Shown here one piece after another: positions 4,826-49,347 of a DNA stretch of 64,000 nucleotides. The notes beneath the pieces were generated by a model, which searched no databases, was not told the origin of the DNA, and saw only the letters and a list, made by a program, of their open reading frames with translations. Numbering within the stretch: position 1 is the stretch's first letter; each line of letters starts with the position of its first letter. The stretch spans positions 9,868-73,867 of IMG/VR virus record IMGVR_UViG_3300044898_000016, one strand, 5' to 3'. The position numbers were made by a program, and so were the translations under genes. This stretch comes from a virus. Its lineage: Duplodnaviria > Caudoviricetes.

Positions 4826-4876
4826 GTGGGCGAAATAACAGAAATTGGCTGGACTGAGGCAACTTGGAATCGATGA
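4826..4876 (+). pseudogene. Orphaned N-terminal relic of a Gp37/Gp68 (DUF5131) gene
   Basis: SD AAGGGAG, then GTG reading MGEITEIGWTEATWNR*; 8/16 identical to the N-terminus of 5392..6123 (MGKETSIEWTGSSWNP). Confidence 0.8.
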
Positions 4877-4904
4877 ATACCGGAACGCGGTACATGTCCA
4901 TCCA

Positions 4905-4913
4905 TGTTATAAT
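4905..4913 (+). promoter_or_regulatory. Extended -10 promoter, predicted leaderless start at ATG 4920
   Basis: TGTTATAAT; the ATG begins 7 nt after the end of TATAAT and has no SD. Confidence 0.65.
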
Positions 4914-4919
4914 GGCTGG

Positions 4920-5429
4920 ATGAAACACTCCAAGCAAACGAAAGCAAAGCTATCTAAGGCCCGTAAGGGCGAGTTGAACCCGTTCTATGGCAAGCATCAC
5001 TCAGACGAAACCAAGCGCAAGATGGCAGAACGAACGCGCTTGTTCAATCTCACGTCTCGCAAATACGAACTGTCTAAGCAGTCGATCAGAATTCCGCCGG
5101 AACCGGGCCTGTCTTATCTTGCGGGAGTCGTTGACGCGGATGGTTCTATTCGTTTTCGTCGAGGGCGTCCGTTCGTGTCTGTATATAACGGATGCGATGA
5201 CCTTATGCGTTGGCTGGTCAAGCGCGTTGGCGGTCAGTACAAGGCGGGTGATCTTCGCGGTAGGGTTCCTAATTGTACGTGGTCAATCAGTGCCGCAAGA
5301 GACGTTTATGCGCTCTGTAAAGCCCTTCTGCCTCGCTTGCTAGTAAAGCAGAGCGACGCAAGAGCGGCAATGGTCGCTCTGGAAAGTAAGTATGGGAAAA
5401 GAAACCTCAATCGAATGGACGGGATCTAG
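4920..5429 (+). CDS. Free-standing homing endonuclease, NUMOD3 + LAGLIDADG
   Basis: KHSKQTKAKLS...NPFYGKHHSDETKRKM (NUMOD3) and YLAGVVDADGSI (LAGLIDADG). Confidence 0.85.
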   Translation: MKHSKQTKAKLSKARKGELNPFYGKHHSDETKRKMAERTRLFNLTSRKYELSKQSIRIPPEPGLSYLAGVVDADGSIRFRRGRPFVSVYNGCDDLMRWLVKRVGGQYKAGDLRGRVPNCTWSISAARDVYALCKALLPRLLVKQSDARAAMVALESKYGKRNLNRMDGI

Positions 5430-6123
5430 TTGGAATCCGTGGCATGGCTGCATCAAAGTGAGCCCCGGCTGTAAGAATTGCTACATGTACCGCGACAAGG
5501 CGCGATATGGACAAGATCCGCTCAAGGTCGTTCGATCAAGAACCACGTTCAATGCCCCGCTGAAATGGCCTGAGCCTCGCGTGATTTTCACCTGTTCGTG
5601 GTCTGATTTCTTCATGAAGGAAGCCGACGATTGGCGCGATGCTGCATGGGACATCATTCGCAGCACGCCGCAGCATACCTATCAAATTCTGACGAAGCGA
5701 CCAGAGCGGATCGCGGATCATCTTCCGAGCGATTGGGACAGACAGGATCGTTGGAAGCATGTTTGGCTTGGCGTGAGTTGCGAGAACCAAGAGACAGCAA
5801 ATGATCGAATTCCGATCTTGCTGCAAACGCCAGCCGCAATCCATTGGGTAAGCGCGGAGCCATTGCTCGGGCCGATTCACTTCTGTGGACTCGGAGGGTG
5901 CTGCTCGGAGTATCGGGATTATCCGCTGGATTGGATCGTATTTGGCGGCGAATCAGGATCGGACTTTCGGGCAATGGAAATCGACTGGTTACGCGACGGC
6001 ATTGAGCAATGCAAAGAAGGTGGCGTCAAGATATTTACAAAGCAAGACAGCGGATTTAAACCGGGTCAGCAAGGGCGCATCCCAGACGAATTGTGGCTGA
6101 AAGAATTTCCAAAGGCAGCGTGA
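5392..6123 (+). CDS. Phage Gp37/Gp68 family (DUF5131) radical-SAM-like protein
   Basis: IEWT..WNPWHGCIKVSPGCKNCY, FTCSWSDFF, LTKRPER, VSAEPLLG, WIVFGGESG. Confidence 0.9.
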   Translation: MGKETSIEWTGSSWNPWHGCIKVSPGCKNCYMYRDKARYGQDPLKVVRSRTTFNAPLKWPEPRVIFTCSWSDFFMKEADDWRDAAWDIIRSTPQHTYQILTKRPERIADHLPSDWDRQDRWKHVWLGVSCENQETANDRIPILLQTPAAIHWVSAEPLLGPIHFCGLGGCCSEYRDYPLDWIVFGGESGSDFRAMEIDWLRDGIEQCKEGGVKIFTKQDSGFKPGQQGRIPDELWLKEFPKAA

Positions 6124-6126
6124 ACA

Positions 6127-6333
6127 ATGAAACTCTCAGATCGCATTGCAGCGGCAAAGAAAGCAAAGCCGGGTGATCTTTGGAGCAATCGAAAAGGACT
6201 CTACACGGTGGAGATCGTAGAGATTCGCAGGATGCTCAATCCTCAGGTCGTATTTAAGAACTTGTTGACTGGAAAGGACCCGGCCAAAGGGATCACACTG
6301 TTTGCAGATAAGGTTGAGCCGGTGAAGAAATGA
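6127..6333 (+). CDS. Hypothetical protein
   Basis: 68-aa ORF tightly coupled to its neighbours. Confidence 0.6.
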   Translation: MKLSDRIAAAKKAKPGDLWSNRKGLYTVEIVEIRRMLNPQVVFKNLLTGKDPAKGITLFADKVEPVKK

Positions 6334-6581
6334 GCGCACGAGTAAAACCAAAGACGATGATCGAATCCGATGCGGCGGCGATGATCGGGATTCATCCTGA
6401 GACGTTAGCCAGGTATCGACGCGAGGGCAGGGTTCCAACGTGGCGACAGGTTGGCCGGCTGATTAAGTACACGCCTGACGACGTGGATCGAGCTATCGCG
6501 TCTTTCGAGAAGGCCGGGCCTGATCTTGCTGAGGTTGAGCGGACGGCTCAACAGAAAGTTCTGAAGGGGCGCTTTGGTTGA
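6330..6581 (+). CDS. Excisionase/MerR-like helix-turn-helix protein
   Basis: ESDAAAMIGIHPETLARYRREGRVP...GRLIKYTPDDV. Confidence 0.8.
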   Translation: MSARVKPKTMIESDAAAMIGIHPETLARYRREGRVPTWRQVGRLIKYTPDDVDRAIASFEKAGPDLAEVERTAQQKVLKGRFG

Positions 6582-6604
6582 TCTGATTCTGAATATCCTT
6601 TTGA

Positions 6605-6657
6605 ATACCCGAAATGGTATATAGACAAGTCGATATAGTTTCGGTATAGTCGGGGGC
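6605..6657 (+). promoter_or_regulatory. Sigma70-type promoter inside a nested imperfect palindrome; leaderless start at 6658
   Basis: TAGACA (6622-27), 17 bp, TATAGT (6645-50), 7 nt, ATG. Inverted arms ATACCCGAAA/TTTCGGTAT and ATATAGAC/GTCGATAT. Confidence 0.7.
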
Positions 6658-6795
6658 ATGGAAAACAACTACAATACAACGCTCGAATCAATGGCAGCCG
6701 ACCAAGCGTTACTAGTCGAACTCGAAGGGCCGGTCTGTTCTGAGTGCAACAACACGCCCGAAACCGGAGCGTGCTTTTACTGCAAGATGGACTGA
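6658..6795 (+). CDS. Small Cys-containing protein (45 aa, not in the ORF track)
   Basis: MENNYNTTLESMAADQALLVELEGPVCSECNNTPETGACFYCKMD*, directly after the promoter. Confidence 0.6.
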   Translation: MENNYNTTLESMAADQALLVELEGPVCSECNNTPETGACFYCKMD

Positions 6796-6803
6796 AGATT
6801 TAC

Positions 6804-6995
6804 ATGCGATCTGAGAGGGATGAAAAGCTAAGCGAGGTAAAATTTCTAATCGCGTTCTACGAAAGGCGCGGCTGGGATTGGGGCTTACCCGCTGAATTCC
6901 TGCTACAGAAAGCTAACGGCGGGCCGCTGGTTATCCGAACACGAATTGGAGTTGAGAGTGAGCGAAAAACCACACGACAGAGGAAAGTGCGCTGA
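6804..6995 (+). CDS. Hypothetical protein
   Basis: ATG within ORF 6744..6995; fills the gap in the operon. Confidence 0.45.
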   Translation: MRSERDEKLSEVKFLIAFYERRGWDWGLPAEFLLQKANGGPLVIRTRIGVESERKTTRQRKVR

Positions 6996-7134
6996 CCTCG
7001 ATTGCTCGATTTGTGCAAACGGTGAAGATGAGTTTGAAGAATGGGTTTTCGAGGTAGGGCGTCAAATCGAATCCACGCGGCGATCCGAAACCATGTCGGC
7101 GGCTGACTATGGAATTACTATCAACGCGAGATAG
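6958..7134 (+). CDS. Small Cys-containing hypothetical protein
   Basis: GTG start, GKCADLDCSIC motif. Confidence 0.5.
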   Translation: MSEKPHDRGKCADLDCSICANGEDEFEEWVFEVGRQIESTRRSETMSAADYGITINAR

Positions 7135-7321
7135 CAGCCGCATCGTTCCTGACGAACTCTGCGAGCATGTTGAAATGGGCGCTCTCTCTGTGGGCGGTTT
7201 TTGTTTCACGGGAAGGCTTGATCCGATAAATGTTGGGATGTGTCAGCCGTGTTTAGATTGGTGTTTAGCGAACTTGGCTGATCCTGAAAAACTAGAAAAC
7301 CTAGGAGGCGAAATTGAATAA
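7109..7321 (+). CDS. Hypothetical protein
   Basis: 70-aa ORF overlapping its neighbours. Confidence 0.4.
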   Translation: MELLSTRDSSRIVPDELCEHVEMGALSVGGFCFTGRLDPINVGMCQPCLDWCLANLADPEKLENLGGEIE

Positions 7322-7559
7322 AGTTAAGCCATTTGTGGCGTTCGGGAACGGATACTCCGACGAATTTAAGACGTTCGCGCAAGCAAGGGCGGCGGTAAAA
7401 ACCAACAAGAACGGAGCGGTTTATGTGCTGGCTTGCTCTTGCGGCGACAACGAGGGATGCAGTTGGTGCAACGGGAATCATACATCGAAAGTCAGCACGG
7501 AGACCACGCGCGTGCTGCGGAAAACTGGCAGCAAGTATCGCTTTACGGGAGAAGGATAG
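7314..7559 (+). CDS. Hypothetical protein with CxC...CxxC
   Basis: GGAGG SD, TTG start, 81 aa. Confidence 0.65.
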   Translation: MNKVKPFVAFGNGYSDEFKTFAQARAAVKTNKNGAVYVLACSCGDNEGCSWCNGNHTSKVSTETTRVLRKTGSKYRFTGEG

Positions 7560-7565
7560 ACGGCC

Positions 7566-7739
7566 TTGTCTACCATCAAACAACTAACCTGCCTCCGCTG
7601 TGGAAATAAATGGTATCCACGAAGTCCTGATCCTCCTAAGACGTGCGCGGCGTGTAATTCTCCGTACTGGAATCGAAAGCGCGGGGCGGTCAGAGTTGGG
7701 CGTCCAAAACTAAAAAAGCGTTATGGGTCGAAAAATTAA
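7566..7739 (+). CDS. Small zinc-finger / basic DNA-binding protein (57 aa, not in the ORF track)
   Basis: GAAGGA SD, TTG; LTCLRCGNKWYPRSPDPPKTCAACNSPYWNRKRGAVRVGRPKLKK. Overlaps the downstream HNH start. Confidence 0.75.
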   Translation: MSTIKQLTCLRCGNKWYPRSPDPPKTCAACNSPYWNRKRGAVRVGRPKLKKRYGSKN

Positions 7740-8295
7740 AAACAAGACAGGCTGGCGTCTGGGCTACCTAAACGTAATTGAGTTGGCGGGAATGAAAGAC
7801 GGGCGCACTACTTGGCGTTGCGTATGCGACTGTGGCAGGGAAGTAATACTTCGCACTTCAAATATCCGAAACGATAAGGCGCGCAGTTGTGGGTGCCAAG
7901 ACGGAGTAAGAAGAACGCTGAAATTTGCCCGCATGATGCTAAAGATTTTTAGGCACTCCCACGAGAAGGGTCAACTACGCCGCAAGCACGCCCAAGACCG
8001 ACCATTTGAATTAACGGCAGAGGATATTGAGCGTTTGATTTTCTCTGACTGTCATTATTGCGGCGTCCCGCCAAGTAATGCCCGCCGATTAAAGGGCTAC
8101 CGGGAATATGCGTGGAATGGAATTGATCGTGTTGATAACGCTAAAGGCTATACCCCGGAGAATACGGTTGCCTGCTGCAAGACTTGTAACTATGCAAAAA
8201 ACAAGATGTCTGTCGATGAGTTTCTCGGATGGCTCGAACGTATAGCAATCCATCAAACCGCTTTGGGTAATATTTCCTTAAGGGAAGCAGAGTGA
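7723..8295 (+). CDS. HNH-type homing endonuclease
   Basis: WRCVCDCG...RSCGC N-terminal module; CHYCG...GIDRVDNAKGYTPENTVACCKTCNYAK nuclease motif. Confidence 0.85.
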   Translation: MGRKIKNKTGWRLGYLNVIELAGMKDGRTTWRCVCDCGREVILRTSNIRNDKARSCGCQDGVRRTLKFARMMLKIFRHSHEKGQLRRKHAQDRPFELTAEDIERLIFSDCHYCGVPPSNARRLKGYREYAWNGIDRVDNAKGYTPENTVACCKTCNYAKNKMSVDEFLGWLERIAIHQTALGNISLREAE

Positions 8296-9032
8296 AACTA
8301 CTCGATTTGTATTGCGGGGCGGGCGGTGCGGCTATGGGGTATTACCGTGCCGGGTTCACCGAGATTGTCGGTATCGACATCGATCCCCAGCCTAACTACC
8401 CGTTTGACTTTGTACGGATGGATTTCATGGACTTGTTCACTTATCCCTATCCGCAGTACTGGCAGGACGCCGACCTGATCCATGCCTCGCCACCGTGCCA
8501 GGCATATTCCGATCTCGCAAAGCGGAACGGGAACGAACACACGCACCCGAAGTACATTGAAGCTCTGCGAGAAATGCTGGACTCGACTAACAGGGATTGG
8601 GTTATCGAGAACGTCGAAGGCGCTCCCTTGTTTGAACCTCTCATCCTTTGCGGCACGATGTTCGAGTCTTTGCGCGTGTTGCGGCACAGACTGTTTGAGT
8701 TCTCTTACTCCATTATTCAGCGAAGCAAACTCGCCGCGCCTTTTCATCCGAAACATCCGCTTGTTTACACTCGCGACAAGCGAAAAGCGCATTACGGGAA
8801 GCTGAACGAGTGGGATTCGCCTGTCAGTGTTAATGGCGGCGGCAACTGCTCTGTCGAGGCGGCGCGAGACGCAATGGGCATCGACTGGATGACGAAAGCG
8901 GAACTTAACGAAGCGATTCCGCCGGCCTACACGGAATGGATCGGAAGGCAACTACTGGAAAGCGGACTGATACAAGCGAAAGTAGCGTGGACTAAATGGG
9001 ATGGATCGATCCAAAGGACTGAAGGAGCGTGA
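8292..9032 (+). CDS. C5-cytosine DNA methyltransferase (short phage type)
   Basis: LLDLYCGAGG (motif I), HASPPCQ (motif IV), VIENV (motif VI), EAIPPAY (motif X). Confidence 0.9.
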   Translation: MKLLDLYCGAGGAAMGYYRAGFTEIVGIDIDPQPNYPFDFVRMDFMDLFTYPYPQYWQDADLIHASPPCQAYSDLAKRNGNEHTHPKYIEALREMLDSTNRDWVIENVEGAPLFEPLILCGTMFESLRVLRHRLFEFSYSIIQRSKLAAPFHPKHPLVYTRDKRKAHYGKLNEWDSPVSVNGGGNCSVEAARDAMGIDWMTKAELNEAIPPAYTEWIGRQLLESGLIQAKVAWTKWDGSIQRTEGA

Positions 9033-9035
9033 ACT

Positions 9036-9263
9036 ATGAACTCGGCACTGATTATCTACGCGGTATTTTCCACCAGCGTCGCTGTGTGGGCTTTGTTTCA
9101 GCTATCGGTCGAGCGGTCACTGTCTCGCCTTGATGCTCAGTTTCGAGAGAGCGACCGCAAGTTTTATCGCGGATGGGAAAACATTTGGTTCGCTCAACTT
9201 GAAAAAACGACAGGACGATTAAGGCCCGCAAAGCCGAAAGTGCGACCAAAGAAAAAATCCTGA
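9036..9263 (+). CDS. Small protein with N-terminal transmembrane helix
   Basis: GAAGGAG SD, hydrophobic N-terminus, basic C-terminus. Confidence 0.6.
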   Translation: MNSALIIYAVFSTSVAVWALFQLSVERSLSRLDAQFRESDRKFYRGWENIWFAQLEKTTGRLRPAKPKVRPKKKS

Positions 9264-9304
9264 TATGCCAAAGAAGAAGAAGCGCAAGCCAAACCAAATC
9301 TAGG

Positions 9305-9517
9305 TTGATGAGGAACGGTGCAATCGATCCAGTCGAGGGCGCGGTTTGGCGTGTCGAGCGCAATGAATTAATCGACAAGCGGGCGGGCGGTGAACGCCGA
9401 TGGGTCGTTGACTTCCTTGCGAAGTACGTCCGGCCTGACAAGGTTGACGGCGCGTATTTGCCTGATGTCGAAGGCTCGCTAAATCCCGGTGAGGTCGTCT
9501 GGAATTGGCGACCGTGA
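9305..9517 (+). CDS. Hypothetical protein
   Basis: 70-aa ORF in the operon direction. Confidence 0.45.
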   Translation: MMRNGAIDPVEGAVWRVERNELIDKRAGGERRWVVDFLAKYVRPDKVDGAYLPDVEGSLNPGEVVWNWRP

Positions 9518-9602
9518 AAGCAAAAAAAGGATCGCTCCCCCTACTACGAGGTAGCGACCCTTAAGTTACGAAACGAACACTAAATGGAAGGATAGCAGAA
9601 TC

Positions 9603-9989
9603 ATGGTTGCTACGCAGTTGAAGTATCAAGAGTCGCTAGAGTCGCACGTGTGTGTGAGTTGTGGCGTTTCCTTTGCGATGCCAGAGTGGTTTATCGACGC
9701 GAGGCGCAAGGATAAGCGGGCCTATTACTGCCCTAACGGTCACTGCCTTTCTTATGCCGAAGGCGAGGCAGATAAACTGCGCAAGCAACTCGAAGCGGAG
9801 CGCGCGCGCATTGAGATGTTTCGACGTGAGAATCAAGAAAAAGAGCGGACAATAACATCTCTGAAAGGGCAAATCACAAAGACAAGGAATCGTATCAGCA
9901 AGGGTATCTGCCCCTGTTGCAATCGTTCGTTTGTGCAGCTCGGACGGCATATGAAAACAAAGCATCCTGACTACACGCAGAAGCAATGA
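9603..9989 (+). CDS. Zinc-finger / coiled-coil phage protein
   Basis: CVSCG, YCPNGH, coiled coil, and C-terminal CPCCNRSF...RHMKTKH (C2H2). Confidence 0.75.
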   Translation: MVATQLKYQESLESHVCVSCGVSFAMPEWFIDARRKDKRAYYCPNGHCLSYAEGEADKLRKQLEAERARIEMFRRENQEKERTITSLKGQITKTRNRISKGICPCCNRSFVQLGRHMKTKHPDYTQKQ

Positions 9990-10053
9990 GGATTGACCAC
10001 TTTGGGAGTCCCTAGCGGTCTCCCAGTCTGTTCGGTTTAGGAAAGGAATTTTA

Positions 10054-10401
10054 GTGACGAAAAAGGAATTGCAAGCCGAAGTTGAGCGGCTGAGAGGTGT
10101 GTTAGCGGGCCAAATAGATCGTGACATGATCCTTAAGCATTTAGGTTACACAGCGGGCGACGGGATAACGATTGCGGTTTCCCCGCCTGAGTTTGTGCGC
10201 CGATTTTTTGCTGAACTGTTTATCGTGGCAATGGACGATGCTCCTAACTTTCAAACAGGTTCAGTTCAATTTAAGGCTCAGGATTACGAGCTAACTATAC
10301 GACGCATTAGCGGCAAGTCTACCGCTCAGGTGTTAGGCGAATTGCGAGCTGAAAACGCTCAACTGCGTTCCGAGTTGGAGCAAACCCAAACGACACCGTA
10401 G
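10054..10401 (+). CDS. Hypothetical protein
   Basis: AAGGA SD, GTG start, 115 aa. Confidence 0.65.
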   Translation: MTKKELQAEVERLRGVLAGQIDRDMILKHLGYTAGDGITIAVSPPEFVRRFFAELFIVAMDDAPNFQTGSVQFKAQDYELTIRRISGKSTAQVLGELRAENAQLRSELEQTQTTP

Positions 10402-10515
10402 AGAGGTTTGCGCAGCCATGATCCAAAAAGCATTAGAACGACTTTCAATAGGAGCGATCATGTTGTGGTTTGGGATGCTGGCTGTGTCGAGATGGGGAAG
10501 GAAGAGGTTTGAGGC

Positions 10516-10998
10516 ATGATCAAATTTACTGTAGTAGGAATTCCGCAACCAGCGGGTAGCAAGCGAGCCTTCATCATTCCCGGTAAAGACGGAGCGAAGG
10601 GCCGTGCAATCGTGACGGACGCAAACCCAAATGCGCGGGACTGGAAGAACGCGGTTGCACAAACAGCAATCGAGTCACGCAATGGTGCTGGCCCCGACTT
10701 ACTGACCGGCCCGCTTTCGTTCACAGCGCGTTTCTACCGTCCGCGACCGCAAGGACACTACGGCAAGGCAGGGCTGAACAAGAAAGGGCGGGAGACGCCG
10801 TTTCCTACATCAAAACCGGACGTGTTGAAGCTAGCGCGCGGAACTGAAGATGCGTTGACGGGAATTATTTGGAGAGACGACTCGCTGATTGTGCATGAAG
10901 ATATTCGGAAGCTTTGGGGCGAGCCCGCAAGGTGTGAAATCGAGATACGCGAGGTTGTGAATCGTACAGCCTTGGAACCTGTTATCGGCGTAGATTGA
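10516..10998 (+). CDS. rusA: RusA-family Holliday junction resolvase
   Basis: VVGIPQPAGSKRA, KPDVLKLARGTEDALTGIIWRDDSLIV. Confidence 0.85.
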   Translation: MIKFTVVGIPQPAGSKRAFIIPGKDGAKGRAIVTDANPNARDWKNAVAQTAIESRNGAGPDLLTGPLSFTARFYRPRPQGHYGKAGLNKKGRETPFPTSKPDVLKLARGTEDALTGIIWRDDSLIVHEDIRKLWGEPARCEIEIREVVNRTALEPVIGVD

Positions 10999-11010
10999 AA
11001 AGGAGAAAGA

Positions 11011-11178
11011 GTGACAATTCTAAAGTTTCTACCGTGGGCGATTTTTAGTGGCGTGACGACGGCCTTCGCGTGGCCTTCTCTGTCCGCAGGGATGCGGGCC
11101 GGATTATTAATTTTCACGGCATGGTGGATCGCGGGAAATATCGCACACGAAATCTGTGTCGCAAAAAGAGAGAGGTAG
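11011..11178 (+). CDS. Small two-TM membrane protein (55 aa, not in the ORF track)
   Basis: AAGGAG SD, GTG; ILKFLPWAIFSGVTTAFAW...GLLIFTAWWIAG. Confidence 0.6.
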   Translation: MTILKFLPWAIFSGVTTAFAWPSLSAGMRAGLLIFTAWWIAGNIAHEICVAKRER

Positions 11179-11184
11179 TCAACC

Positions 11185-12238: not shown

Positions 12239-12355
12239 AAAGAAAGACGCTCCCGGAACTGTCATTCCAAAAGCGTCCCCAGTTGAACTCCAAAGAGTTC
12301 GTGTGTGTTGCAAAGAGAAGATACCACAGAAAACACTTTGGAGAGGAATGAAAAT

Positions 12356-13950: not shown

Positions 13951-14030
13951 GGCAAGTATGCGTCGGAACTACCTCTAGGCGTCTTTGACGTACAGCGCAA
14001 ATAGCGCGGAGTTGAGGCCGGGGACTTGCC
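13951..14030 (+). ncRNA. Candidate structured RNA / 5' leader (80 nt)
   Basis: Closing stem GGCAAGT/ACTTGCC with internal hairpins GCGTC-TTT-GACGT and GCGC-AAATA-GCGC. Confidence 0.35.
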
Positions 14031-14040
14031 GTAAAACTGA

Positions 14041-17753: not shown

Positions 17754-18143
17754 ATGAGTCATCCAGCAACCAATGTACGACTTATTCGCAGCATGCCAAA
17801 AATTGACGCCTCAAAAGGCTTGCTTAGTTTCCTGCAACGCCATTTTTCGCCACAATCGGAGGTGCAGATGGTAGCAGCCTCGCAATCGAAGGGGATCTTT
17901 CTTCCCTACCCACTGCTCGGAATCGTAATGACAATCGGGATTGTGGCCCTAAGCGGCATCATCGCGCTGGAGGTCCAAGTGTCAAACTTGAGCACTCAGA
18001 TTCTTTTGAGAGATGCAGACCAACGAGCGGCCAATCAGATTTCATCCGACAAGCTTTCAACGCTTGAGGTCTATCTACACAATGACCGAGAGCGAATAAT
18101 CAAGCTTGAGGCTGAGAAGGAAGTAATAGACAGAAAGAGGTAG
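17754..18143 (+). CDS. TM + coiled-coil membrane protein
   Basis: LLGIVMTIGIVALSGIIAL followed by heptads. Confidence 0.65.
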   Translation: MSHPATNVRLIRSMPKIDASKGLLSFLQRHFSPQSEVQMVAASQSKGIFLPYPLLGIVMTIGIVALSGIIALEVQVSNLSTQILLRDADQRAANQISSDKLSTLEVYLHNDRERIIKLEAEKEVIDRKR

Positions 18144-18148
18144 ATACG

Positions 18149-18400
18149 ATGCCCGACCCCGAACCGCAGCCTTGCCCCGCCTGTGACACGAAAATCATCC
18201 TAAATGGCGACGTGACGGCCCGCGTTCTCGATTCGATCTGTGAGCGTATTGATAAGTTTGTCGCCGATGGCCACAAGTTCCCTGACGCGCTAAAACTTGT
18301 AAACATGGCAAACAAGCTAGAGGATGATGCCTTTGCTTTCGCCAAGGAAGTAATGAAGCAGATCGGGTTTCAAGGGCCGTGGCCAAAGAGCATGAGTTAG
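18149..18400 (+). CDS. Hypothetical protein whose C-terminus is duplicated beyond the adjacent HNH gene
   Basis: GAGG SD; ends NKLEDDAFAFAKEVMKQIGFQGPWPKSMS*. The stop overlaps the HNH stop (TTAG). Confidence 0.7.
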   Translation: MPDPEPQPCPACDTKIILNGDVTARVLDSICERIDKFVADGHKFPDALKLVNMANKLEDDAFAFAKEVMKQIGFQGPWPKSMS

Positions 18401-19011
18401 AACGGCGTGGTCATCGTGCGCTCAATAGTCCATCCGCGCCGAAGTCGAGACGAGAGAGAATGAGAGTTGACGCCCATCTCGACCGCCCAATCATGAACTA
18501 CTTGAGTCTTACCGTTCCATGTAATTGAAATGTTTCGTCGTGTGTTTCTGGTTTGTATATCATTCGTGGCCCAGACGCAGTTGCTCTTTGAATAGCCCAG
18601 ATTGTTGTTTGTGCGTTCGAGGGAATGCCGATTAGAAGGGCGCAGGCCCATGTCGGCAAAGAATCCCTCGAAGGACTGCCATTTATCGCAAACGAGAATG
18701 CCGCGCTCGCCATAATCCGCATAGCTGGGATTGTTCGGGTTGCCGCATCTTTGGATCATGTGAGCCCATGCGGTGTATTCAGGCGTAAAGCTCATGCCGT
18801 GTCGCTTGCGGTTGTCGCTCTTTGTACCGCACTTGCCACAGGAAATGCTCGTACCATTTCGCAGGGTTGCGCCGCTCACGGTCTTTACGGTTCCGCACTG
18901 GCAGCGACAGTTCCAGTAGCCAACCTTGGAATTGCCTTTGTAAACCGAGTGCGAAAAATTAATAACGCACCAGCGCCCATACTCTTTGTTCGTCAGGTCA
19001 ATGCGTGCCAT
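18397..19011 (-). CDS. Free-standing HNH homing endonuclease (antisense, predicted leaderless)
   Basis: WNCRCQCG...SCGKC, HGMSFTPEY..W..MIQRC, YGERGILVCDKW, SLERTNNNLGYSKSNCVWA; TGTTATACT ends 7 nt upstream of the ATG. Confidence 0.9.
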   Translation of the reverse strand: MARIDLTNKEYGRWCVINFSHSVYKGNSKVGYWNCRCQCGTVKTVSGATLRNGTSISCGKCGTKSDNRKRHGMSFTPEYTAWAHMIQRCGNPNNPSYADYGERGILVCDKWQSFEGFFADMGLRPSNRHSLERTNNNLGYSKSNCVWATNDIQTRNTRRNISITWNGKTQVVHDWAVEMGVNSHSLSSRLRRGWTIERTMTTPF

Positions 19012-19086
19012 ATATTGAAGTATAACACAAGCGGCTAGAAACAGATAGTTATTTTAATTCCTGGTATTTCAAAGGAGTTACTTCTA

Positions 19087-19176
19087 AACAAGATGGAAGA
19101 CGAAGCGTGCCAAGTTCAAAAGATGATCCTCAAAGGGATTCATTACGACGGGCCAACGGGTAAGATGCTGGTTTAG
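19087..19176 (+). pseudogene. Orphaned C-terminal relic of the 18149..18400 gene
   Basis: NKMEDEACQVQKMILKGIHYDGPTGKMLV*; 11/29 identical, ungapped, with the stop at the same aligned position. Confidence 0.75.
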
Positions 19177-38353: not shown

Positions 38354-38382
38354 GGGGCGTCCGCTAAAACGCCCCATCTTTT
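38354..38382 (+). terminator. Intrinsic terminator after the major capsid gene
   Basis: GGGGCGT/ACGCCCC stem followed by ATCTTTT. Confidence 0.65.
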
Positions 38383-39061
38383 AATGTTCTTTGACAACTA
38401 AACCAATTGCTTGTTCAAGGGTCCAAAGTGTGGGCCTGCTTAGTCGGTCGTAAATCTTCGCCCGACTAACTCCGGTACGCTCAGACCATTCAGCTACCGA
38501 CAACGTCTCGCTATTAATCGTCACCATGCGATTGCTTCTGGTGTTGCGATTTTGCTCCGTGCGCGTAGCCCATCGGAAGTTATCCGGATGGTAGTCACCA
38601 TTCTTGTCCGGATAGCGATCAATGGAGTGAGTTTTTGAGGGCGGTATTCCCACGTCAGCACGGAAGGACTCGAAACTATGCCACCGTTCACATACAGCTA
38701 TGCCGCGACCGCCATAGTTATGGTACGAATCACATTTAGGGTTGTAGCATCGACGATGCATTTGTCGGAAGATCGCATAAAGCCTTGTCCCTGAAAGTCC
38801 GTGGATGAAATTCTGGCGAGGCTGCTCAGCGTTATAGCATCCGCAGGACTTGATTCTACTGTTAAGCAGTTGACTTGCTCTGACAATCCAAATAATGCCG
38901 CAGTCGCACTTACAGAGCCAGAACGCGCCTGCTTTTCTTTTCATGCCAAGGAATGCTAAAGGGGTGACGCGGGTAAATTTGACGCCGATAAGGTTGTTGA
39001 CCCGGTCAGGCGAAATTGGTTTACGAAGTTGCTTGAGAATTGTAAAGTTAGTTTCAGGCAT
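38381..39061 (-). CDS. Free-standing HNH homing endonuclease (antisense)
   Basis: WLCKCDCG...KSCGC, HGLSGTRLY, YGGRGIAVCERW, SIDRYPDKNGDYHPDNFRWA. Confidence 0.9.
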   Translation of the reverse strand: MPETNFTILKQLRKPISPDRVNNLIGVKFTRVTPLAFLGMKRKAGAFWLCKCDCGIIWIVRASQLLNSRIKSCGCYNAEQPRQNFIHGLSGTRLYAIFRQMHRRCYNPKCDSYHNYGGRGIAVCERWHSFESFRADVGIPPSKTHSIDRYPDKNGDYHPDNFRWATRTEQNRNTRSNRMVTINSETLSVAEWSERTGVSRAKIYDRLSRPTLWTLEQAIGLVVKEH

Positions 39062-41899: not shown

Positions 41900-41910
41900 A
41901 GGGGTGATGC

Positions 41911-43404: not shown

Positions 43405-43407
43405 GTC

Positions 43408-43989
43408 ATGGCAACTTATCAGACGCTGATCGATCTCGCATTGCAGCAAGCCCTTGCTGGTGGAGATCAGTTGCGCTCAGCTCTGCTCGACGCTGACATG
43501 ACGATGGAATCACTTGTCCAGCAAGTGTTTCAACAAGTGGCACTCAGATACGCAGGTGGTGACTCGGATTCTCAATCATTACTACGTGCTACGCATACAG
43601 TCGCGCTGACTAATGGCGTGGGTACGTTGCCTGACGAGGCGCTGACCTCGTGTATCTGGGGATCGTCAGTAGACGTGGACGGTGAGCCACTAATCGGCCC
43701 CGCAATGTCGTATATCCCGTGGATAAGCTTTACGCAGCCAAGTGATAATTTATTAGGTTACTATTCTGTCCGTGGTAACACTGAATTCTATTGGATTGAT
43801 CCTAACGAAACCTACACGCCGGGAGCGGGACGCACAGGTAATGTGGAGGTAACGATTGCTTCAGTGCCTTTAGTGCCCGCGAGCGCGAGCGATCCAGTGG
43901 ATGTTCCCAGTGAATGCTTCTCTGATTTAGTGACCGCGTTGGCCGTGGCGATTAGTAGCGTGATAGCTCGACAACAGAAAGCGGCGTAA
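43408..43989 (+). CDS. Head-tail adaptor-like protein 3
   Basis: MATYQTLIDLALQQ N-terminal helix; VDVPSECFSDLVTALAVAI C-terminal helix. Confidence 0.55.
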   Translation: MATYQTLIDLALQQALAGGDQLRSALLDADMTMESLVQQVFQQVALRYAGGDSDSQSLLRATHTVALTNGVGTLPDEALTSCIWGSSVDVDGEPLIGPAMSYIPWISFTQPSDNLLGYYSVRGNTEFYWIDPNETYTPGAGRTGNVEVTIASVPLVPASASDPVDVPSECFSDLVTALAVAISSVIARQQKAA

Positions 43990-46091
43990 TGTCACCTGTT
44001 AGAACCATCCACCCAACAGCCTACCAGCCCACCATTCCGCGATCTGGTGACACGCCCGATGACGCGATATTTTCAATGTCCAACATCATCCTCCGTGGGC
44101 AAGGGGCATTAAAGTACGCCGAGTGCTATGCAGGAAGTTACGACCTTAGTGAGACGATTGCCACTTCTGCTCTTACCGGAACATTGGCAGTTAGCACGGC
44201 AACGAAAACAGTCACGGGCAGTGGCACGACTTTCGTCACCGAACTTCATCTCGGCCAGTACGTGTTAGTAGCGAACGCGGCGAGTACGGCGTCTACACTG
44301 CTGACCGTCGAACGCATCGTCTCAGCCACGAGTTTTATTACCAGCCAATTCCCTGACTTCACTGAATCAGGTCGCACAGGGACACGTCTACCCATTATTT
44401 TCGCAGTGGACACACAGCGAGGCACGGCGTTGCGCGGCAATGTTATTAGATTAGACAAGGGAACGTTATTCTCTGTGGGCGATGGGGTATTTCGGTTAGA
44501 TGGTAATGCGATAAACTCGTCCTTAACACTCACCCGCCGCCCCAAAATAAGCTTGTACGCACCTGCCAGTGGTACTTACACTAGTTTCACCTTAGGCATG
44601 CCAACATCTGCCGCGCCGGGACTAGCAGCGGTGGGTGGAGGCTCGCCGGGAATGCAGGCGGGAAGTTACTCGATAGTGATTACTCCTGCACGCAAGGAAA
44701 CTCTTGGATTTAACAACCCATCCACTCGTGCAGATGTAACACTCGCCACAGGTGACAAAACCCGTATTACCTTCCCTGCGATGGACACAGCCAGTGGACA
44801 AAACGCATGGATTGTCTGGGGTACGACATTCGCCGCGTCATTAGGTGCAGACAAGAACTACCTTGAAGGCCCGTGGTTCAAAGTACAAATAGTAGACGAT
44901 ACCCAGGTATCACCGGTAGGTGGGACGTTTGACGTTGAATGGTTGGACGCGGAAATTGAACGGCAAGATGCAGTGACATTTGACAACGATGCGCCAACCG
45001 ACGCGGAGTTTGTCGTAAACTTCAATAACGTACCCGTGTACATCAGCTGCCAGGGGATACCGAACGCTGCGGGTAGTGTCACGTCGCCGGGGCCGTTTAT
45101 CGTACCAGCAAAGCCGAATAACGTAGAAGCCGCTCCTTTGGTGTTGGCGTTCTCATCGTCACCACCAGAGATTATTTACGGAGTGACAAGCGGGGCCGGT
45201 CGGCTATATTTACTCACCTCTACGCATTTGCAAGTTGCTCAAGGCACACCACAGCAAGACGTGCCAGTTATTATTCAACCATTCTGGCATAGTGGATTCA
45301 CTAACCCTTATCAAGTGGCGTTTTTCAACGGACGGCTATATGGATTTCCGGTTAGCGGCCCAACGCGGTCAGCGTCTGAAGGTGAGGAGGGTAGCGAAGA
45401 GGTATCATTCGCCGCTGCCGTGCAAGCAATTACTGGGAGTTGGGTGCCTGCTCGCGTAATGGTAGCCTACGATCCGGTTAACACTGCAATCTGTTTCTTC
45501 CATGCATGTGATTCGCTGAACAGTAGTGGGTATTGGACAACGAGAGTTTTAATGTTCGGCGTGCAGCAGGATAAATGGATAGGAGACGTGACGCTCACTT
45601 CCACATCTCGCGATATGATTGTTAGCGGCGTGGCGACCGTGGCCGATAGTTTAGAATTTCTTGCGGGAGGGCGCACTGCGGGTAGCACAGTAGCAACTAA
45701 AACCTACACTTTTGATACTATCTCGGGTGAGTCCGTACCGTGGCGACTAGCTCCTGCGTTCAGTGACACTGGCGACGAGTTGCGTTCACACGTAATTAAA
45801 CGCATACGAGCAACGGCCAAGTCAACGTCGGGATCGTTGGGTGTATTTGGATTCCAACCAACCCAAGTAATTGACATTTCGCTGTTGGCGACAGGGAACA
45901 GCGCAAGCCTTACGGGCGCGATTAGCTTGCCGAATACAACATCGGTGGCACTTACTCAACAGTTCCAAGTCAATTGCCCTAACCTCGATGTCTCCACAAT
46001 CCAGATACAAGGCACATGGGGCGGCACGGGTAATAAAGATAGAGTTGACGAGATCCTTTATGAGCTAGCCCCGCAAGGAGTCCGTAGATAA
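43989..46091 (+). CDS. Tail nozzle / stabilization protein (P22 gp10 / T7 gp12-like role)
   Basis: 700-aa beta-rich protein after the adaptors, in podoviral order. Confidence 0.65.
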   Translation: MSPVRTIHPTAYQPTIPRSGDTPDDAIFSMSNIILRGQGALKYAECYAGSYDLSETIATSALTGTLAVSTATKTVTGSGTTFVTELHLGQYVLVANAASTASTLLTVERIVSATSFITSQFPDFTESGRTGTRLPIIFAVDTQRGTALRGNVIRLDKGTLFSVGDGVFRLDGNAINSSLTLTRRPKISLYAPASGTYTSFTLGMPTSAAPGLAAVGGGSPGMQAGSYSIVITPARKETLGFNNPSTRADVTLATGDKTRITFPAMDTASGQNAWIVWGTTFAASLGADKNYLEGPWFKVQIVDDTQVSPVGGTFDVEWLDAEIERQDAVTFDNDAPTDAEFVVNFNNVPVYISCQGIPNAAGSVTSPGPFIVPAKPNNVEAAPLVLAFSSSPPEIIYGVTSGAGRLYLLTSTHLQVAQGTPQQDVPVIIQPFWHSGFTNPYQVAFFNGRLYGFPVSGPTRSASEGEEGSEEVSFAAAVQAITGSWVPARVMVAYDPVNTAICFFHACDSLNSSGYWTTRVLMFGVQQDKWIGDVTLTSTSRDMIVSGVATVADSLEFLAGGRTAGSTVATKTYTFDTISGESVPWRLAPAFSDTGDELRSHVIKRIRATAKSTSGSLGVFGFQPTQVIDISLLATGNSASLTGAISLPNTTSVALTQQFQVNCPNLDVSTIQIQGTWGGTGNKDRVDEILYELAPQGVRR

Positions 46092-46093
46092 TC

Positions 46094-46687
46094 ATGGCAA
46101 TTCCCGGCAGTGACGTAGTTGTCGATCCCACCATCGTGTATGACCAGTACAACACTACTGGTTCGTCGGTGGAGAATTTCTTTCTCAATGAGAACTTACC
46201 GCCGGGGAGCGCGGTCACGACTGTAAACGGGGTCGCTGGGCCGATTATTAACATCACTGGTGGGAGTACGGGATTGGCGTTCAGCGTGGGCGCGTCACCA
46301 GTCATCCTCAGTGGCACGACGGTAGCGGCCAGCGGTGGCACGGGTCAATCAAGTTATGCAGTTGGTGACATTCTCTACGCGTCAGGTACAACGGCCCTTA
46401 GTAAACTTGCAGATGTTGCCACCGGCAACGCGCTTCTCTCCGGCGGGGTAACGACCGCCCCCGCATGGGGGAAAGTTGGACTCACTACGCATGTCACAGG
46501 TGTGTTGCCTAATGCCAATGGGGGGATGGTGAAGATTAACGCGGCAGCAGTTGCGCCAACTGTTACCGATGATAGTTCAGCGGGCTATAGCGTGAACTCA
46601 TTGTGGACAGACACCGTGCTTCAGGACGGCTATATGTGCATGAGCGCAGCAGTGGGCGCAGCGATCTGGAAGAAGATAACGCCATGA
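46094..46687 (+). CDS. Short fibre/needle-like virion protein
   Basis: GGTGQSSYAVGDILYASGTTALSKL fibre repeat; APTVTDDSSAGYSVNSLW module. Confidence 0.65.
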   Translation: MAIPGSDVVVDPTIVYDQYNTTGSSVENFFLNENLPPGSAVTTVNGVAGPIINITGGSTGLAFSVGASPVILSGTTVAASGGTGQSSYAVGDILYASGTTALSKLADVATGNALLSGGVTTAPAWGKVGLTTHVTGVLPNANGGMVKINAAAVAPTVTDDSSAGYSVNSLWTDTVLQDGYMCMSAAVGAAIWKKITP

Positions 46688-47196
46688 CCACTATTCGCCG
46701 CCTCAATCCTGACACTGACCGAGGGCTACTTGTTGATGCTTACGCATGGGAAGCTTTTGCGCCTCGCTGGTTTAAGGATGCGGATAAAGTATTCGGGCCA
46801 CCGACATTGGTTGATTTCATCAAAGGAACGGAGCAGGATGATCGAGCAACATTCGGGATATTTGATGACGAGATTGCTGGTCTGATTATCCTCACATTGC
46901 GAGATAGCGCGGTAGAAGCTGACCTGATGGCTCGGCCTGGTGTTTCGCTTGAAATTATCGCGGCAGGTGCGTCGTCTTTACGTGATGCCGTATTCAGCGA
47001 CTTACCTGTCACGGCTATTTATTGCTGGCTAGCGAGAAAAAACTACCCCACTAGAAAGTTGTGTGCCATAATAGGTTTCTGTGATAGTGGACTACGATTA
47101 CTCAAGGGCGTATATCGCGGGCGAGTCATTGAGTGGTATCGGTTGGAAATCACGCGAGAGGCATGGGAAACGGAACAGCTAGCACTTGCCGCTTGA
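46684..47196 (+). CDS. GNAT-like (acetyltransferase-fold) protein in the tail/ejection cluster
   Basis: IYCWLARKNYPTRKLCAIIGF resembles the GNAT N...L...GF motif; start at ATG 46684. Confidence 0.55.
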   Translation: MTTIRRLNPDTDRGLLVDAYAWEAFAPRWFKDADKVFGPPTLVDFIKGTEQDDRATFGIFDDEIAGLIILTLRDSAVEADLMARPGVSLEIIAAGASSLRDAVFSDLPVTAIYCWLARKNYPTRKLCAIIGFCDSGLRLLKGVYRGRVIEWYRLEITREAWETEQLALAA

Positions 47197-47290
47197 TAAC
47201 TTAACCTGATAGGTGGAATACCTGACGGGCCGTGTGGGTGAATCAATTCGTGGATACGAGTTGCTTGACCGATACGGCCCCTTTTCATTG
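47193..47290 (+). promoter_or_regulatory. Repeated late regulatory element, copy B
   Basis: TTGATAACTTAACCT, AGG-TGGAATA-CCT hairpin, 6 nt after GAATA, GGGCCGT/ACGGCCC long hairpin, TTTTCATTG. Confidence 0.7.
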
Positions 47291-47292
47291 TT

Positions 47293-47811
47293 ATGGGTAA
47301 AAAAAAATCAGAGACTACGCAAAATCAGACGCAGAGCCAGAACCAGAACTATAACAACGCGTCTACGAATTCTTATAGTCAGATCACGCCCAATGACACT
47401 GCTGACATTAGCAAGTTTCGAGATTGGAATCCGCAGATCGATCCAGGTTTAGGCGCGCAATATGGCGCGGCGCATGAACGGCTTCACAGTTCATTCATAA
47501 ACCCCCTCGGCGGTTACTCCACGCCACAGATGCGTGACGCCCAGCAGCGTACTGGTGATAGACAGTTAAATCAAGATGAAGCTAGTGCCTTTAGAAGCGG
47601 TCAATACGATGTTAACAATCAAAAGGCGGGACAACTTGGGACACTAGCAACGTTGACGGCTCCGCGACTTGTACAGACAGGCTCTACGGCTAGTGGCACG
47701 GGGACGAGTTCAGGAACATCGTCAGGGACGGGGACGACGGTACAGTCAGGTGATCTGTTAGGGCAAATCCTCGGCGGTGCGGCGCAAGTCGGTTCAGCCG
47801 CGTTGATGTAA
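47293..47811 (+). CDS. Small ejection / DNA-transfer protein (P22 gp7 / T7 gp14-like role)
   Basis: MGKKKSETTQ N-terminus, Q/N/T/S-rich body, C-terminal GQILGGAAQVGSAALM. Confidence 0.65.
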   Translation: MGKKKSETTQNQTQSQNQNYNNASTNSYSQITPNDTADISKFRDWNPQIDPGLGAQYGAAHERLHSSFINPLGGYSTPQMRDAQQRTGDRQLNQDEASAFRSGQYDVNNQKAGQLGTLATLTAPRLVQTGSTASGTGTSSGTSSGTGTTVQSGDLLGQILGGAAQVGSAALM

Positions 47812-47819
47812 CCACGGAA

Positions 47820-47879
47820 ATGAATAAAAATATCATCGAACAATCTCTCGCTACGGCAAAGTCTCCCGTAGTGCTGTCA
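47820..47879 (+). pseudogene. Orphaned N-terminal relic of the PAPS-reductase-like gene
   Basis: MNKNIIEQSLATAKSPVVLS(S); NIIE..L....SP.VL.S is 10/18 identical to the 48676 gene N-terminus. Confidence 0.75.
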
Positions 47880-48593
47880 TCGCCTGCGCTGGTCGTAGAT
47901 GCGTCCTTGCTCGCGCTCTCGCTTTCTTACTTCTGGACGTTCCCTTCGTTTCCTTGCGGCAATCTTGGCTTTTTCTCTGCGGCGGAGTCGTTGTTCATCA
48001 GTAAGATTATGGTATCGAGCGCTTTCTATTTGCAGTTGACGCAGTTTCTTTTCTGGCGACATATTGAGCCGTCTTCGCTTACTGCCCCTTGCTTGCATCA
48101 TTCGGTGTCTAGTAGCCTCTGCGGAGTCCGGCGCGATAGTTTTAGACCTAGCGTCAGATCGCTCAATAGCGCATCGTCTACATGCTCGGCCATATCCATT
48201 TTGACGATAAGATTTATACGTATTCTCGGTAGAATACGGATGACCCTTCGGGCAATGAGTTTTTTTAATATTCATAGCCGCTGGCCCTACGCCACGCAGA
48301 ATGTTAACCCGCTGAGTAACCACTTCCAAGTGCCCAAAATTAACGCATCTTCGCACTCGGCAGAGATGGTCGCAGCACAACTCTTTAGGAACCAAACCGA
48401 CGAACAGTTCATAGCTAAGGCGATGGGCCATTCGAGCGCGGCCATTCCAAGTCATAACACCATAGCCCTCTGCGGCGGTCGATCCTTGCCACAACCAGCA
48501 TCCAGTTTCATGGTCTACCTTAATTTTCTCCAGAAAGCGCGCAAGTTGTACAAGTGTTTTTGGGAGTGTGGTATTCTTTGGGTTAGACATCAT
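47877..48593 (-). CDS. Free-standing HNH homing endonuclease (antisense)
   Basis: CWLWQG...GYG...AHRLSY...DHLCRVRRCVNFGHLEVV, then THCPKGHPY...CRRC zinc finger; AGAGGAGG SD. Confidence 0.9.
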   Translation of the reverse strand: MMSNPKNTTLPKTLVQLARFLEKIKVDHETGCWLWQGSTAAEGYGVMTWNGRARMAHRLSYELFVGLVPKELCCDHLCRVRRCVNFGHLEVVTQRVNILRGVGPAAMNIKKTHCPKGHPYSTENTYKSYRQNGYGRACRRCAIERSDARSKTIAPDSAEATRHRMMQARGSKRRRLNMSPEKKLRQLQIESARYHNLTDEQRLRRREKAKIAARKRRERPEVRKREREQGRIYDQRRR

Positions 48594-48619
48594 TGCCTCC
48601 TCTTAGGTAATGTTGTTTT

Positions 48620-48667
48620 GGTTGGCGAGAACTTAGAGGGTTCGCGCCAACCTTATTTATTATACCA
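48620..48667 (-). promoter_or_regulatory. Extended -10 promoter plus 5' leader hairpin for the HNH gene
   Basis: Minus strand TGGTATAAT (48667-48659); predicted +1 at 48652 is the first G of the GGTTGGCG/CGCCAACC hairpin. Confidence 0.65.
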
Positions 48668-48675
48668 AAAATCGC

Positions 48676-49347
48676 ATGAATCTAGTGAACAGTTTTAATA
48701 TCATTGAGGAGGCGTTGAGCCGGTCGGCTAGTCCGACTGTACTTTGCTCATTTCAAAAAGACTCAATGTTACTGCTTTGGATGGTGAGACAGATTAATCC
48801 AAATGTGCCTGTAGTCTGGTTTCACGATGCTCGGGACCCATTTGCCGAGAGTGTGATCATGGATTGGGACTTAACAGTATTCTCGTATCGACCCGCCGAC
48901 AGGTATCTCGTGCCGAGTGGGAATGGAATGATGTTAGTAGACGAGTACGCGATAGGCGCGGCCAGATTACCAACATTGAGAGACGTGGTAGAGGGTGAGC
49001 GGTGTGGATTAGAATCACTATCAGCCTCGCGCACGCCAAATTTCAACTACCCATTCGACATCACCTTTTTTGGCTTCAAGGCAGCGGACGCGACGGATCA
49101 TGAGATTACAAACCACGCAATACTGCCTCAACAATTCATTCTCGGCCATACCACGATGGTTGCGCCGTTGCACGAGTGGAGTAACAAGGACGTGTTGACC
49201 GCGATAGATGAACACGGCATCCCGTACCAGCCACGCGACGATTCGGTGACTATGTGCCAGCAATGTGCGAGTTCGTTAAGTCGCTGGAATGGTACGACGG
49301 CGTTATCAATCTTTCACAAACGATTTGGTTTCGAGCAAGTTCACTAA
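48676..49347 (+). CDS. PAPS-reductase / PP-loop superfamily protein with a degenerate P-loop
   Basis: VLCSFQKDSMLLLWMV (canonical SGGKDS), VVWFHD, FFGFKAAD, APLHEWSNKDVLTAIDEHGIPY. Confidence 0.7.
   Translation: MNLVNSFNIIEEALSRSASPTVLCSFQKDSMLLLWMVRQINPNVPVVWFHDARDPFAESVIMDWDLTVFSYRPADRYLVPSGNGMMLVDEYAIGAARLPTLRDVVEGERCGLESLSASRTPNFNYPFDITFFGFKAADATDHEITNHAILPQQFILGHTTMVAPLHEWSNKDVLTAIDEHGIPYQPRDDSVTMCQQCASSLSRWNGTTALSIFHKRFGFEQVH

Follow-up and report, generated by a model that had tools for sequence, protein, structure and literature searches.

Homing endonuclease genes beside stranded copies of host gene ends in a phage genome: probable scars of one-sided allele replacement

In a 64 kb stretch (the window) within the 73.9-kb virus record IMGVR_UViG_3300044898_000016 (Caudoviricetes), three free-standing homing endonuclease genes (HEG1, HEG2 and HEG3) were each found between the working terminus of a neighbouring gene and an orphan copy of that same terminus. 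The neighbouring genes are a DUF5131 gene (case 1), an 83-amino-acid gene designated X (case 2) and a PAPS-reductase-like gene (case 3), and the orphan copies are referred to as stubs. Comparison with alleles of these genes in other genomes suggests that the three loci are, with good probability, scars of endonuclease-driven allele replacement, in which a break was repaired by homology on one side and by an illegitimate join on the other. Close relatives of the window were not found in the GenBank phage collection by blastn.

The arrangement had been described earlier from the letters of the window only (the original prediction), and all three pairs of divergent copies were recovered, with the 5' end of the gene affected in cases 1 and 3 and the 3' end in case 2. 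The paired termini align without gaps, sharing 7-8/16 residues in case 1, 11/30 in case 2 and 10/18 in case 3. A window-wide control covered 307 termini of open reading frames, the 1.5 kb flank of each being compared with it in three frames. Among these termini, the three cases took ranks 1, 2 and 3 (scores 56, 48 and 45); the best other terminus scored 42, and the 95th percentile lay at 33. When each case was shuffled in fixed register for 100,000 trials, the observed score was reached 2 times for case 1 and 0 times for cases 2 and 3, which bears out the claim that the similarities exceed chance.

The three loci share further features. In every case the imported part is located on that flank of the endonuclease gene which points towards the gene body, and all three stubs end within or adjacent to the most conserved motif of the target gene. 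Each stub is closer to the functional allele of another lineage than to the copy next to it. Since the codon differences to such alleles are mostly synonymous (10 versus 4 non-synonymous in case 2, 4 versus 1 in case 1), all three stubs appear to be fragments of alleles that were functional until recently. The presence of the endonuclease genes is patchy, as empty and occupied sites of the same locus were found among relatives for all three loci (occupied sites: L016, L017, G006, L021 and L044).

In case 1, the stub (4826-4873, VGEITEIGWTEATWNR, followed by a stop codon) begins 15 nucleotides past the stop codon of a methylase gene, and the intact DUF5131 gene starts at 5392 with MGKETSIEWTGSSWNP. 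Stub and working start have 7/16 residues in common (8/16 with the start codon; BLOSUM62 score 43). The stub is thus about 50% identical to the adjacent copy, whereas it is 87% identical to protein P0095, encoded at L032. In tblastn searches it matched P0095 at 13/15 residues (E 8e-4) and P0033 at 12/15 (E 7e-3), being the second-best match of either protein in the whole window, and it agrees with the intact L032 gene at 40/47 nucleotides. The closest endonuclease-free homologues of the intact protein (P0033, 83% identity; P0034, 68%; P0035-37 and P0041, 56-60%; P0095, 57%) begin, in seven of seven cases, with the stub-like sequence MGE.T.IGWTE.TWNP. The DNA context was analyzed for P0033 (on L033 and L034) and P0095 (on L032); in both, the gene directly follows the upstream gene and no endonuclease gene lies between them. 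Empty alleles therefore join the stub-type N-terminus to a body like that of the window, as had been predicted.

Residues 1-16 of the working DUF5131 protein are 9/16 identical to P0033, compared with 83% over the whole protein, and deviate at positions 3, 11 and 13, which are invariant among the seven homologues. Because identity to P0033 regains the gene-wide level from codon 17, the imported piece appears to end at TGGAATC, and the foreign, co-converted stretch would comprise only the 16 codons before this motif. By the homologue comparison, the stranded copy is of the native type and the working copy is foreign. In addition to L032, L033 and L034, the sites L002-L009 are empty. A maximum chi-square breakpoint test of the DUF5131 gene against L032 and L002-L007 located only a C-terminal domain boundary, the swap becoming visible with the closer homologue P0033.

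Occupied sites were found on two viral contigs, L016 and L017, in which LAGLIDADG genes 45% identical to HEG1 lie directly upstream of distant DUF5131 genes. Both contigs show a stub with a Shine-Dalgarno sequence and an ATG, followed by TGATATAAT at the position equivalent to the extended -10 site of HEG1, the endonuclease gene and an unusually divergent new start; the stubs read MGENTKISWCDDT... and MGENSKIA followed by TGA. Together with the G006 locus described below, they show that homologous endonucleases recur in this design outside the window. In the DUF5131 gene of L016 (3019-3075), one extra base is present at the T-F/W-N-P codons (TTT C AAT CCC, compared with TTT AAT CCC in L017), which places the new start out of frame with the gene body. 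Either the presumed cut site was repaired imprecisely and the base is the scar, or the base is an error of sequencing. The imported start of the window overlaps the 3' end of HEG1: positions 5392-5429 lie inside the last 38 nucleotides of HEG1 in a different frame, and the new ATG falls in the conserved K-Y-G-K-R codons of HEG1. As L016 and L017 have a spacer of 20-30 nucleotides at this place, a small deletion between ATGGG microhomologies may have fused HEG1 and the DUF5131 start.

Searches of PDB sequences with HEG1, HEG2 and HEG3 gave no matches. HEG1 was then assigned by fold search, in which the best PDB matches of its AlphaFold model were I-CreI-type enzymes (E 2e-5, prob 1.00); its fold is predicted to be that of an I-CreI-like LAGLIDADG enzyme.

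In case 2, the C-terminus of X (18308-18400) aligns to the orphan ending at 19176 with the stop codons in the same register. An exhaustive HMMER search revealed two kinds of C-terminus in the X family, ...GF.GPWPKSMS in the window gene, L011, L012 and P0004, and ...GY.GPTGKML. in P0022, P0017, P0030 and P0032. In a tblastn search the stub matched P0022 at 27/30 residues (E 3.5e-14), i.e. 90% compared with 37% to the adjacent X, and 76/96 nucleotides agree with the L022 gene; upstream of LLNK the agreement with L022 falls to chance level (12/39). The original prediction had the orphan begin at AAACAAG and placed a hybrid junction there. The homology of the relic, which belongs to the other subfamily, begins earlier, at 19081 (32 codons), and no hybrid junction exists inside X. 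The entire 83-codon gene is of the L011/L023 type, with 83% identity to L011, 73% to L023 (P0004) and 64% to L012, none of which carries an endonuclease gene at this site. Likewise, the direct repeats that had been taken as junction signatures, TTGGAATC and AAACAAG, are conserved T-W-N and N-K codons and not target-site duplications.

The gene upstream of X, p129, marks the resident lineage. Homologues of p129 lie directly upstream of P0022-type X genes (51-56% identity in L022, L098 and L099; 41% in L100), and none was detected beside X in L011, L012 and L023. Because the p129 of the window is of the kind that accompanies P0022-type X, it is most likely that the resident X allele belonged to the P0022 type. 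X, foreign in its entirety relative to p129, most likely arrived with HEG2 as a whole gene, and only the last 32 codons of the resident gene remained. L011 and L012, which lack an endonuclease gene and yet carry the 'new' end, had been considered as refuting case 2. This objection was dropped, because the existence of the P0022 subfamily and the analysis of the p129 partner identify them as representatives of the donor-type allele.

A second occupied site was found in G006 (locus L014), where an HNH gene 60% identical to HEG2 lies flush with the stop codon of X. G006 is 81.5% identical to L022 through p129 and the first ~21 codons of X. These are followed by 683 nucleotides comprising a foreign X allele (about 62 foreign, co-converted X codons) and the HNH gene, and beyond this insert 39/40 nucleotides are identical to L022 over the last 12 codons of X, so that G006 carries its own 12-codon stub. 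Because the stubs differ in length (32 versus 12 codons) and in identity to L022 (79% versus 97.5%), the events in the window and in G006 were independent. That the stranded copy is the native one is indicated for case 2 indirectly, by the p129 partner and the comparison of G006 with L022. Empty sites are L011, L012, L022, L023 and L098-L101. To the right of the stub there is no synteny, since none of the related genomes yielded the small terminase. A left-hand (5') stub of P0022-type X was not found anywhere in the window. A 230-amino-acid protein, P0005, matches residues 1-66 of X (74%) and becomes unrelated right after LEDDAFAF, near the start of the window stub. This switch may reflect a further rearrangement of the same hot spot, or the contig may be chimeric.

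In case 3, the stub starts 9 nucleotides past the stop codon of the upstream gene, a position that corresponds to the gene start of empty sites. It extends up to the codon preceding the SFQKDS P-loop and overlaps the stop codon of HEG3 with its last two codons. The two copies were compared between 47829-47882 and 48697-48750 (10/18 identical residues). The PAPS-reductase-like family is rare, with two other proteins among 5.8 billion, P0002 (56% identity to the window protein) and P0003 (44%). The P0002 contig represents an empty site, in which the gene follows 4 nucleotides after the preceding gene without an endonuclease gene between them, and further empty sites (L036-L041) were found in a metagenome scan. 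The stub matches the empty-site allele P0002 at 11/17 residues (E 0.009, second-best match in the window), compared with 9/17 for the working start. Thus, empty alleles exist as predicted, and the relic is only marginally closer to P0002 than the new end is; for the origin of the stub, this comparison points in the right direction but is not decisive. At L021 and L044, HNH genes 37-40% identical to HEG3 lie between homologues of the same two neighbours without a stub and look like donor-type arrangements. Pattern scans of viral contigs for the PAPS-reductase-like protein and HEG3 gave no relatives.

One antisense frame of HEG3 was found to be free of stop codons. The codons TTA, CTA and TCA are absent from HEG3 (238 codons) and from the homologue in L021 (273 codons), compared with about 8.5 and 9.8 expected at a background of 3.6% (P about 2e-4 and 5e-5), and the L044 homologue has 2 codons of this class. 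Consequently, the in-phase antisense frame is open from the ATG of the stub to the start of the PAPS-reductase-like gene, giving 292 codons across HEG3 (antisense spans: window 47820-48698 on the plus strand, L021 3041-3904, L044 2418-3002). Selection may have kept this frame open so that the host operon continues to be translated across the inverted insert (anti-polarity or coupling). In L044 (2228-2413), the HNH insertion deleted the stop codon of the p172 homologue, and ~60 extra codons are read antisense into the HNH gene. Gene calls are affected at these loci: the PAPS-reductase-like gene of the same record was publicly called as a 138-amino-acid fragment from Met86 (P0001), and in L021 a 287-amino-acid antisense frame was called in place of the HNH gene.

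The motif TGNTATAMT, an extended -10 element, has exactly three matches in 64 kb, each located in the correct orientation just upstream of HEG1, HEG2 or HEG3. This agrees with the claim that each endonuclease gene has its own promoter, the sites being promoter-like. The -10 hexamers of HEG1 and HEG2 (4905-4922 and 19009-19027) end 6-7 nucleotides before the ATG and no Shine-Dalgarno sequence is present, which suggests that these transcripts are leaderless. Leaders with a Shine-Dalgarno sequence were seen in HEG3 and in the HEG1 homologues of L016 and L017; that of HEG3 contains a stable hairpin (fold energy -23.5 kcal/mol, z -5.2). Rfam intron RNAs were not detected around the three loci with the gathering threshold, nor when matches up to E 1 were admitted, and no ribozyme core was thus seen to flank the endonuclease frames as in a group I intron. 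The three genes are free-standing, as they lie outside of introns and inteins and have promoter-like sites of their own.

A fourth endonuclease gene of the window, which is absent from the original prediction, codes for an HNH protein 39% identical to that of G006 over 133 amino acids and lies in a plain intergenic gap with a -10-like site (TGATAAAAT) and a leader hairpin. No duplicated terminus of a neighbouring gene was found in its flanks, and it serves as an internal negative control. All features are listed in Table 1; nearly all genes of the window are on the plus strand. Unrelated to the endonuclease loci, an Rfam DUF3800-VII RNA was detected at 13951-14035 on the plus strand (40.2 bits, gathering threshold 36.2, E 1.5e-4).

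Table 1. Positions of the endonuclease loci and associated features in the window. Assignments as resident or imported are putative.
Feature	Position	Strand	Remarks
Case 1 stub, codons 1-16 of the resident DUF5131 allele with GTG as start codon, then TGA	4826..4876	+	
HEG1 extended -10 site TGTTATAAT	4905..4913	+	6 nucleotides before HEG1 ATG
HEG1, NUMOD3 + single-motif LAGLIDADG homing endonuclease, 169 amino acids	4920..5429	+	Pfam NUMOD3 E 5.6e-17; PHROG 'homing endonuclease'
Intact DUF5131 gene; codons 1-16 (5392-5439) imported start	5392..6123	+	Pfam DUF5131 E 1.2e-64, profile positions 1-222
p129, membrane/coiled-coil gene upstream of X	17754..18143	+	
Intact gene X, 83 amino acids, GPWPK-terminus type, imported allele	18149..18400	+	
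HEG2, HNH-family endonuclease, 204 amino acids	18397..19011	-	PHROG 374 'HNH endonuclease' E 5e-58; stop overlaps X stop
HEG2 extended -10 site TGTTATACT	19019..19027	-	7 nucleotides before HEG2 ATG
Case 2 stub, last 32 codons (stop included) of P0022-type X	19081..19176	+	
Fourth free-standing HNH gene	38381-39061	-	PHROG 374 (as HEG2), E 7.6e-66
Case 3 stub, first 21 codons of PAPS-reductase-like gene	47820..47882	+	
HEG3, HNH_3-family endonuclease, 238 amino acids	47877..48593	-	Pfam HNH_3 E 2.6e-9; PHROG 826 E 7.5e-43
HEG3 extended -10 site TGGTATAAT (48659-48667), leader hairpin and Shine-Dalgarno	48620..48667	-	
Intact PAPS-reductase-like gene; codons 1-25 duplicate the stub	48676..49347	+	Pfam PAPS_reduct E 5.7e-6

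From these comparisons it is established that the stubs are real fragments of other alleles, that the imported parts are foreign to their neighbours and that empty as well as occupied sites exist. We consider it likely that the loci arose as follows. During mixed infection, the free-standing endonuclease of a donor phage would cut the resident allele in a conserved motif near one of its ends, i.e. at TWNP-WxGC in DUF5131, around LLNK-MEDE in X and immediately ahead of the SFxKDS P-loop of the PAPS-reductase-like gene. On the gene-body side, the break would be repaired by recombination with the homologous gene of the donor. On the far side donor and recipient would have no homology, since these highly mosaic phages share nothing beyond the gene, and the resected end would be joined illegitimately to donor DNA beyond the endonuclease gene. 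The product would consist of the resident stub, the donor promoter and endonuclease gene, and a terminus of donor origin that is either fused to the resident gene or takes its place. This terminus would comprise 16 codons in case 1 and all of the 83-codon gene in case 2. The gene would be functional without splicing because the imported piece brings its own start or stop codon. By this reasoning, the breaks at these positions would be the work of the HEG enzymes, the imported ends would be cleavage-resistant and one junction per locus would be illegitimate.

Several observations weigh against this reconstruction. The break sites are deduced solely from the ends of the stubs, and a stub could in principle have travelled with the endonuclease gene from an earlier host. 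The case 1 signal is weak at the nucleotide level (31/47, compared with about 80% elsewhere) and chiefly visible in the protein. In case 2 the left crossover in the window could not be located, nor were the actual donor and recipient genomes found. In case 3 only two distant relatives have a comparable N-terminus, and they do not discriminate between stub and new end (11/17 versus 9/17 residues). Finally, stubs are not obligatory, as they are absent at the fourth HNH gene, L021 and L044. The original prediction had spoken of cassettes that carry a replacement terminus, and this reading needs modification: because one of the four endonuclease genes of the window as well as L021 and L044 have no stub, the stub looks like a by-product of one-sided repair and not like a fixed part of a designed cassette. 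Stub-free sites have the look expected of legitimate two-sided homing or of long residence.

The strongest competitor of one-sided repair would make the stubs passengers, i.e. fossils of an earlier host's gene that move with the endonuclease cassette and say nothing about the former allele of this phage. The P0022-type stubs beside related HNH genes in both the window and G006, the similar stubs of L016 and L017 (both starting MGEN.KI) and the stub of case 3, which could not be assigned, would agree with such transport. However, the DUF5131 body shares 83% identity with P0033, a protein that itself has a stub-like start, the flanks of G006 match L022 on both sides of the replaced segment, and the window has the p129 that accompanies stub-type X. 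The two case 2 stubs, moreover, differ in their length and in their identity to L022, and their changes are mostly synonymous, unlike those of one decaying passenger, and we regard transport as unlikely. Ordinary phage mosaicism, in which modules recombine illegitimately without any role of a nuclease and endonuclease genes merely settle at the boundaries, is less probable still. What the window has in common with G006 and G001 is limited to p129, X, the HNH gene and a few other genes, the genes downstream of X differ in every relative, and nuclease genes have been placed at exchange boundaries in a published study (PMC10448857). It speaks against mosaicism that the top three terminal duplications of 307 termini all flank endonuclease genes, that unrelated genomes have homologous endonucleases at these gene ends and, once more, stubs beside them, and that the stubs end inside the most conserved motifs, which is typical of homing targets.

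Endonuclease genes within phage genes are classically intron-borne, and the inserts might be group I or II introns or other spliced or bypassed elements, with the 'orphan' end used in the mature product. In addition to the negative Rfam searches, the inserts leave little non-coding room (just 47 nucleotides in case 1), two of the three endonucleases are encoded on the other strand, and each working copy brings a start or stop codon of its own and is of full length by comparison with Pfam. An intronic nature, which had been denied from the outset, is therefore hardly credible. Scarcely any probability is likewise left for chance similarity, or for a tandem duplication in situ followed by divergence. 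It is true that the stubs are short (16-32 codons) and that the window null reaches 42 compared with the observed 45-56; however, for independent database proteins a stub is the best or second-best match that the window offers, and stubs that are nearer to foreign alleles than to the adjacent copy rule out duplication and divergence. One-sided repair after cleavage thus remains the preferred explanation.

The closest described system are the mORF hybrids of fungal mitochondria, known from atp6 of Allomyces macrogynus, atp6, atp9, cox2 and nad3 of Glomus, atp9 of Rhizopus and cox2 of Mortierella (PMC3630166). There too, an intron-less endonuclease frame (LAGLIDADG or GIY-YIG) lies within a protein gene (PMC3630166), the resident body has acquired a foreign terminus, and its native terminus lies stranded on the far side of the frame. 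Of the two copies, only the native one clusters with close relatives. The same is seen in case 1 and, indirectly, in case 2, whereas the figures of case 3 (11/17 versus 9/17) do not discriminate. In contrast to these hybrids, the host is a phage and not an organelle, the 5' end is replaced in two of three loci, whereas the described mORF cases are all C-terminal, and in case 2 a whole small gene was replaced. In addition, each endonuclease gene of the window has a promoter-like site to itself and is read out of phase with the host gene, and two of them are inverted and belong to HNH families.

Mechanistically, the loci may be regarded as a variant of the intron-less homing of T4-like phages, in which SegF, SegG, SegB and MobE act with co-conversion of flanking markers (PMC2988022, PMC3984707). 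In both, a free-standing endonuclease gene adjoins its presumed target, is patchily distributed among relatives and is transferred with adjacent donor sequence, and L021 and L044 match the T4 arrangement exactly. The difference is that the described T4 cases were repaired homologously on both sides and left no stub (PMC2988022, PMC3984707). The literature searches made turned up no description of host-gene termini left stranded next to endonuclease genes of phages. In phage T4, MobA reportedly moves with the gene 60 bypass cassette (Bonocora et al., in PNAS in 2011), which is said to split the topoisomerase gene and to need ribosomal bypass. In both systems, an endonuclease gene would travel with neighbouring coding sequence, and this sequence would change the target site within the host gene; in the window, by contrast, the genes stay in one piece and a duplicate terminus is left behind.

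A more far-reaching proposal is that the loci represent a distinct class of phage elements, intron-less and self-repairing, with 'promoter + endonuclease + replacement terminus' as the mobile unit. The terminus would be the immunity determinant, the stub would serve as a homology arm for homing into stub-type alleles and the stop-free antisense frame of case 3 would keep the host operon translated. We put this forward tentatively and consider it rather doubtful.

The pattern has so far been described mainly in fungal mitochondria, and it is unusual to find three independent cases in one genome together with comparators that capture different states. For annotation, stubs and stop-free antisense frames are of practical concern as they mislead gene callers. 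Empty and scarred occupied sites are at hand for all three loci, and a stub-free occupied site for case 3 only, so that target sites and immunity are directly testable with synthetic DNA. Taken together, such scars would provide footprints, at the level of sequence, of homing endonuclease cut sites in uncultured phages and would show how a break is repaired when donor and recipient share homology on one side only. They point to a proposed and rarely documented route by which selfish nucleases may carry whole or partial genes between very distant phages.

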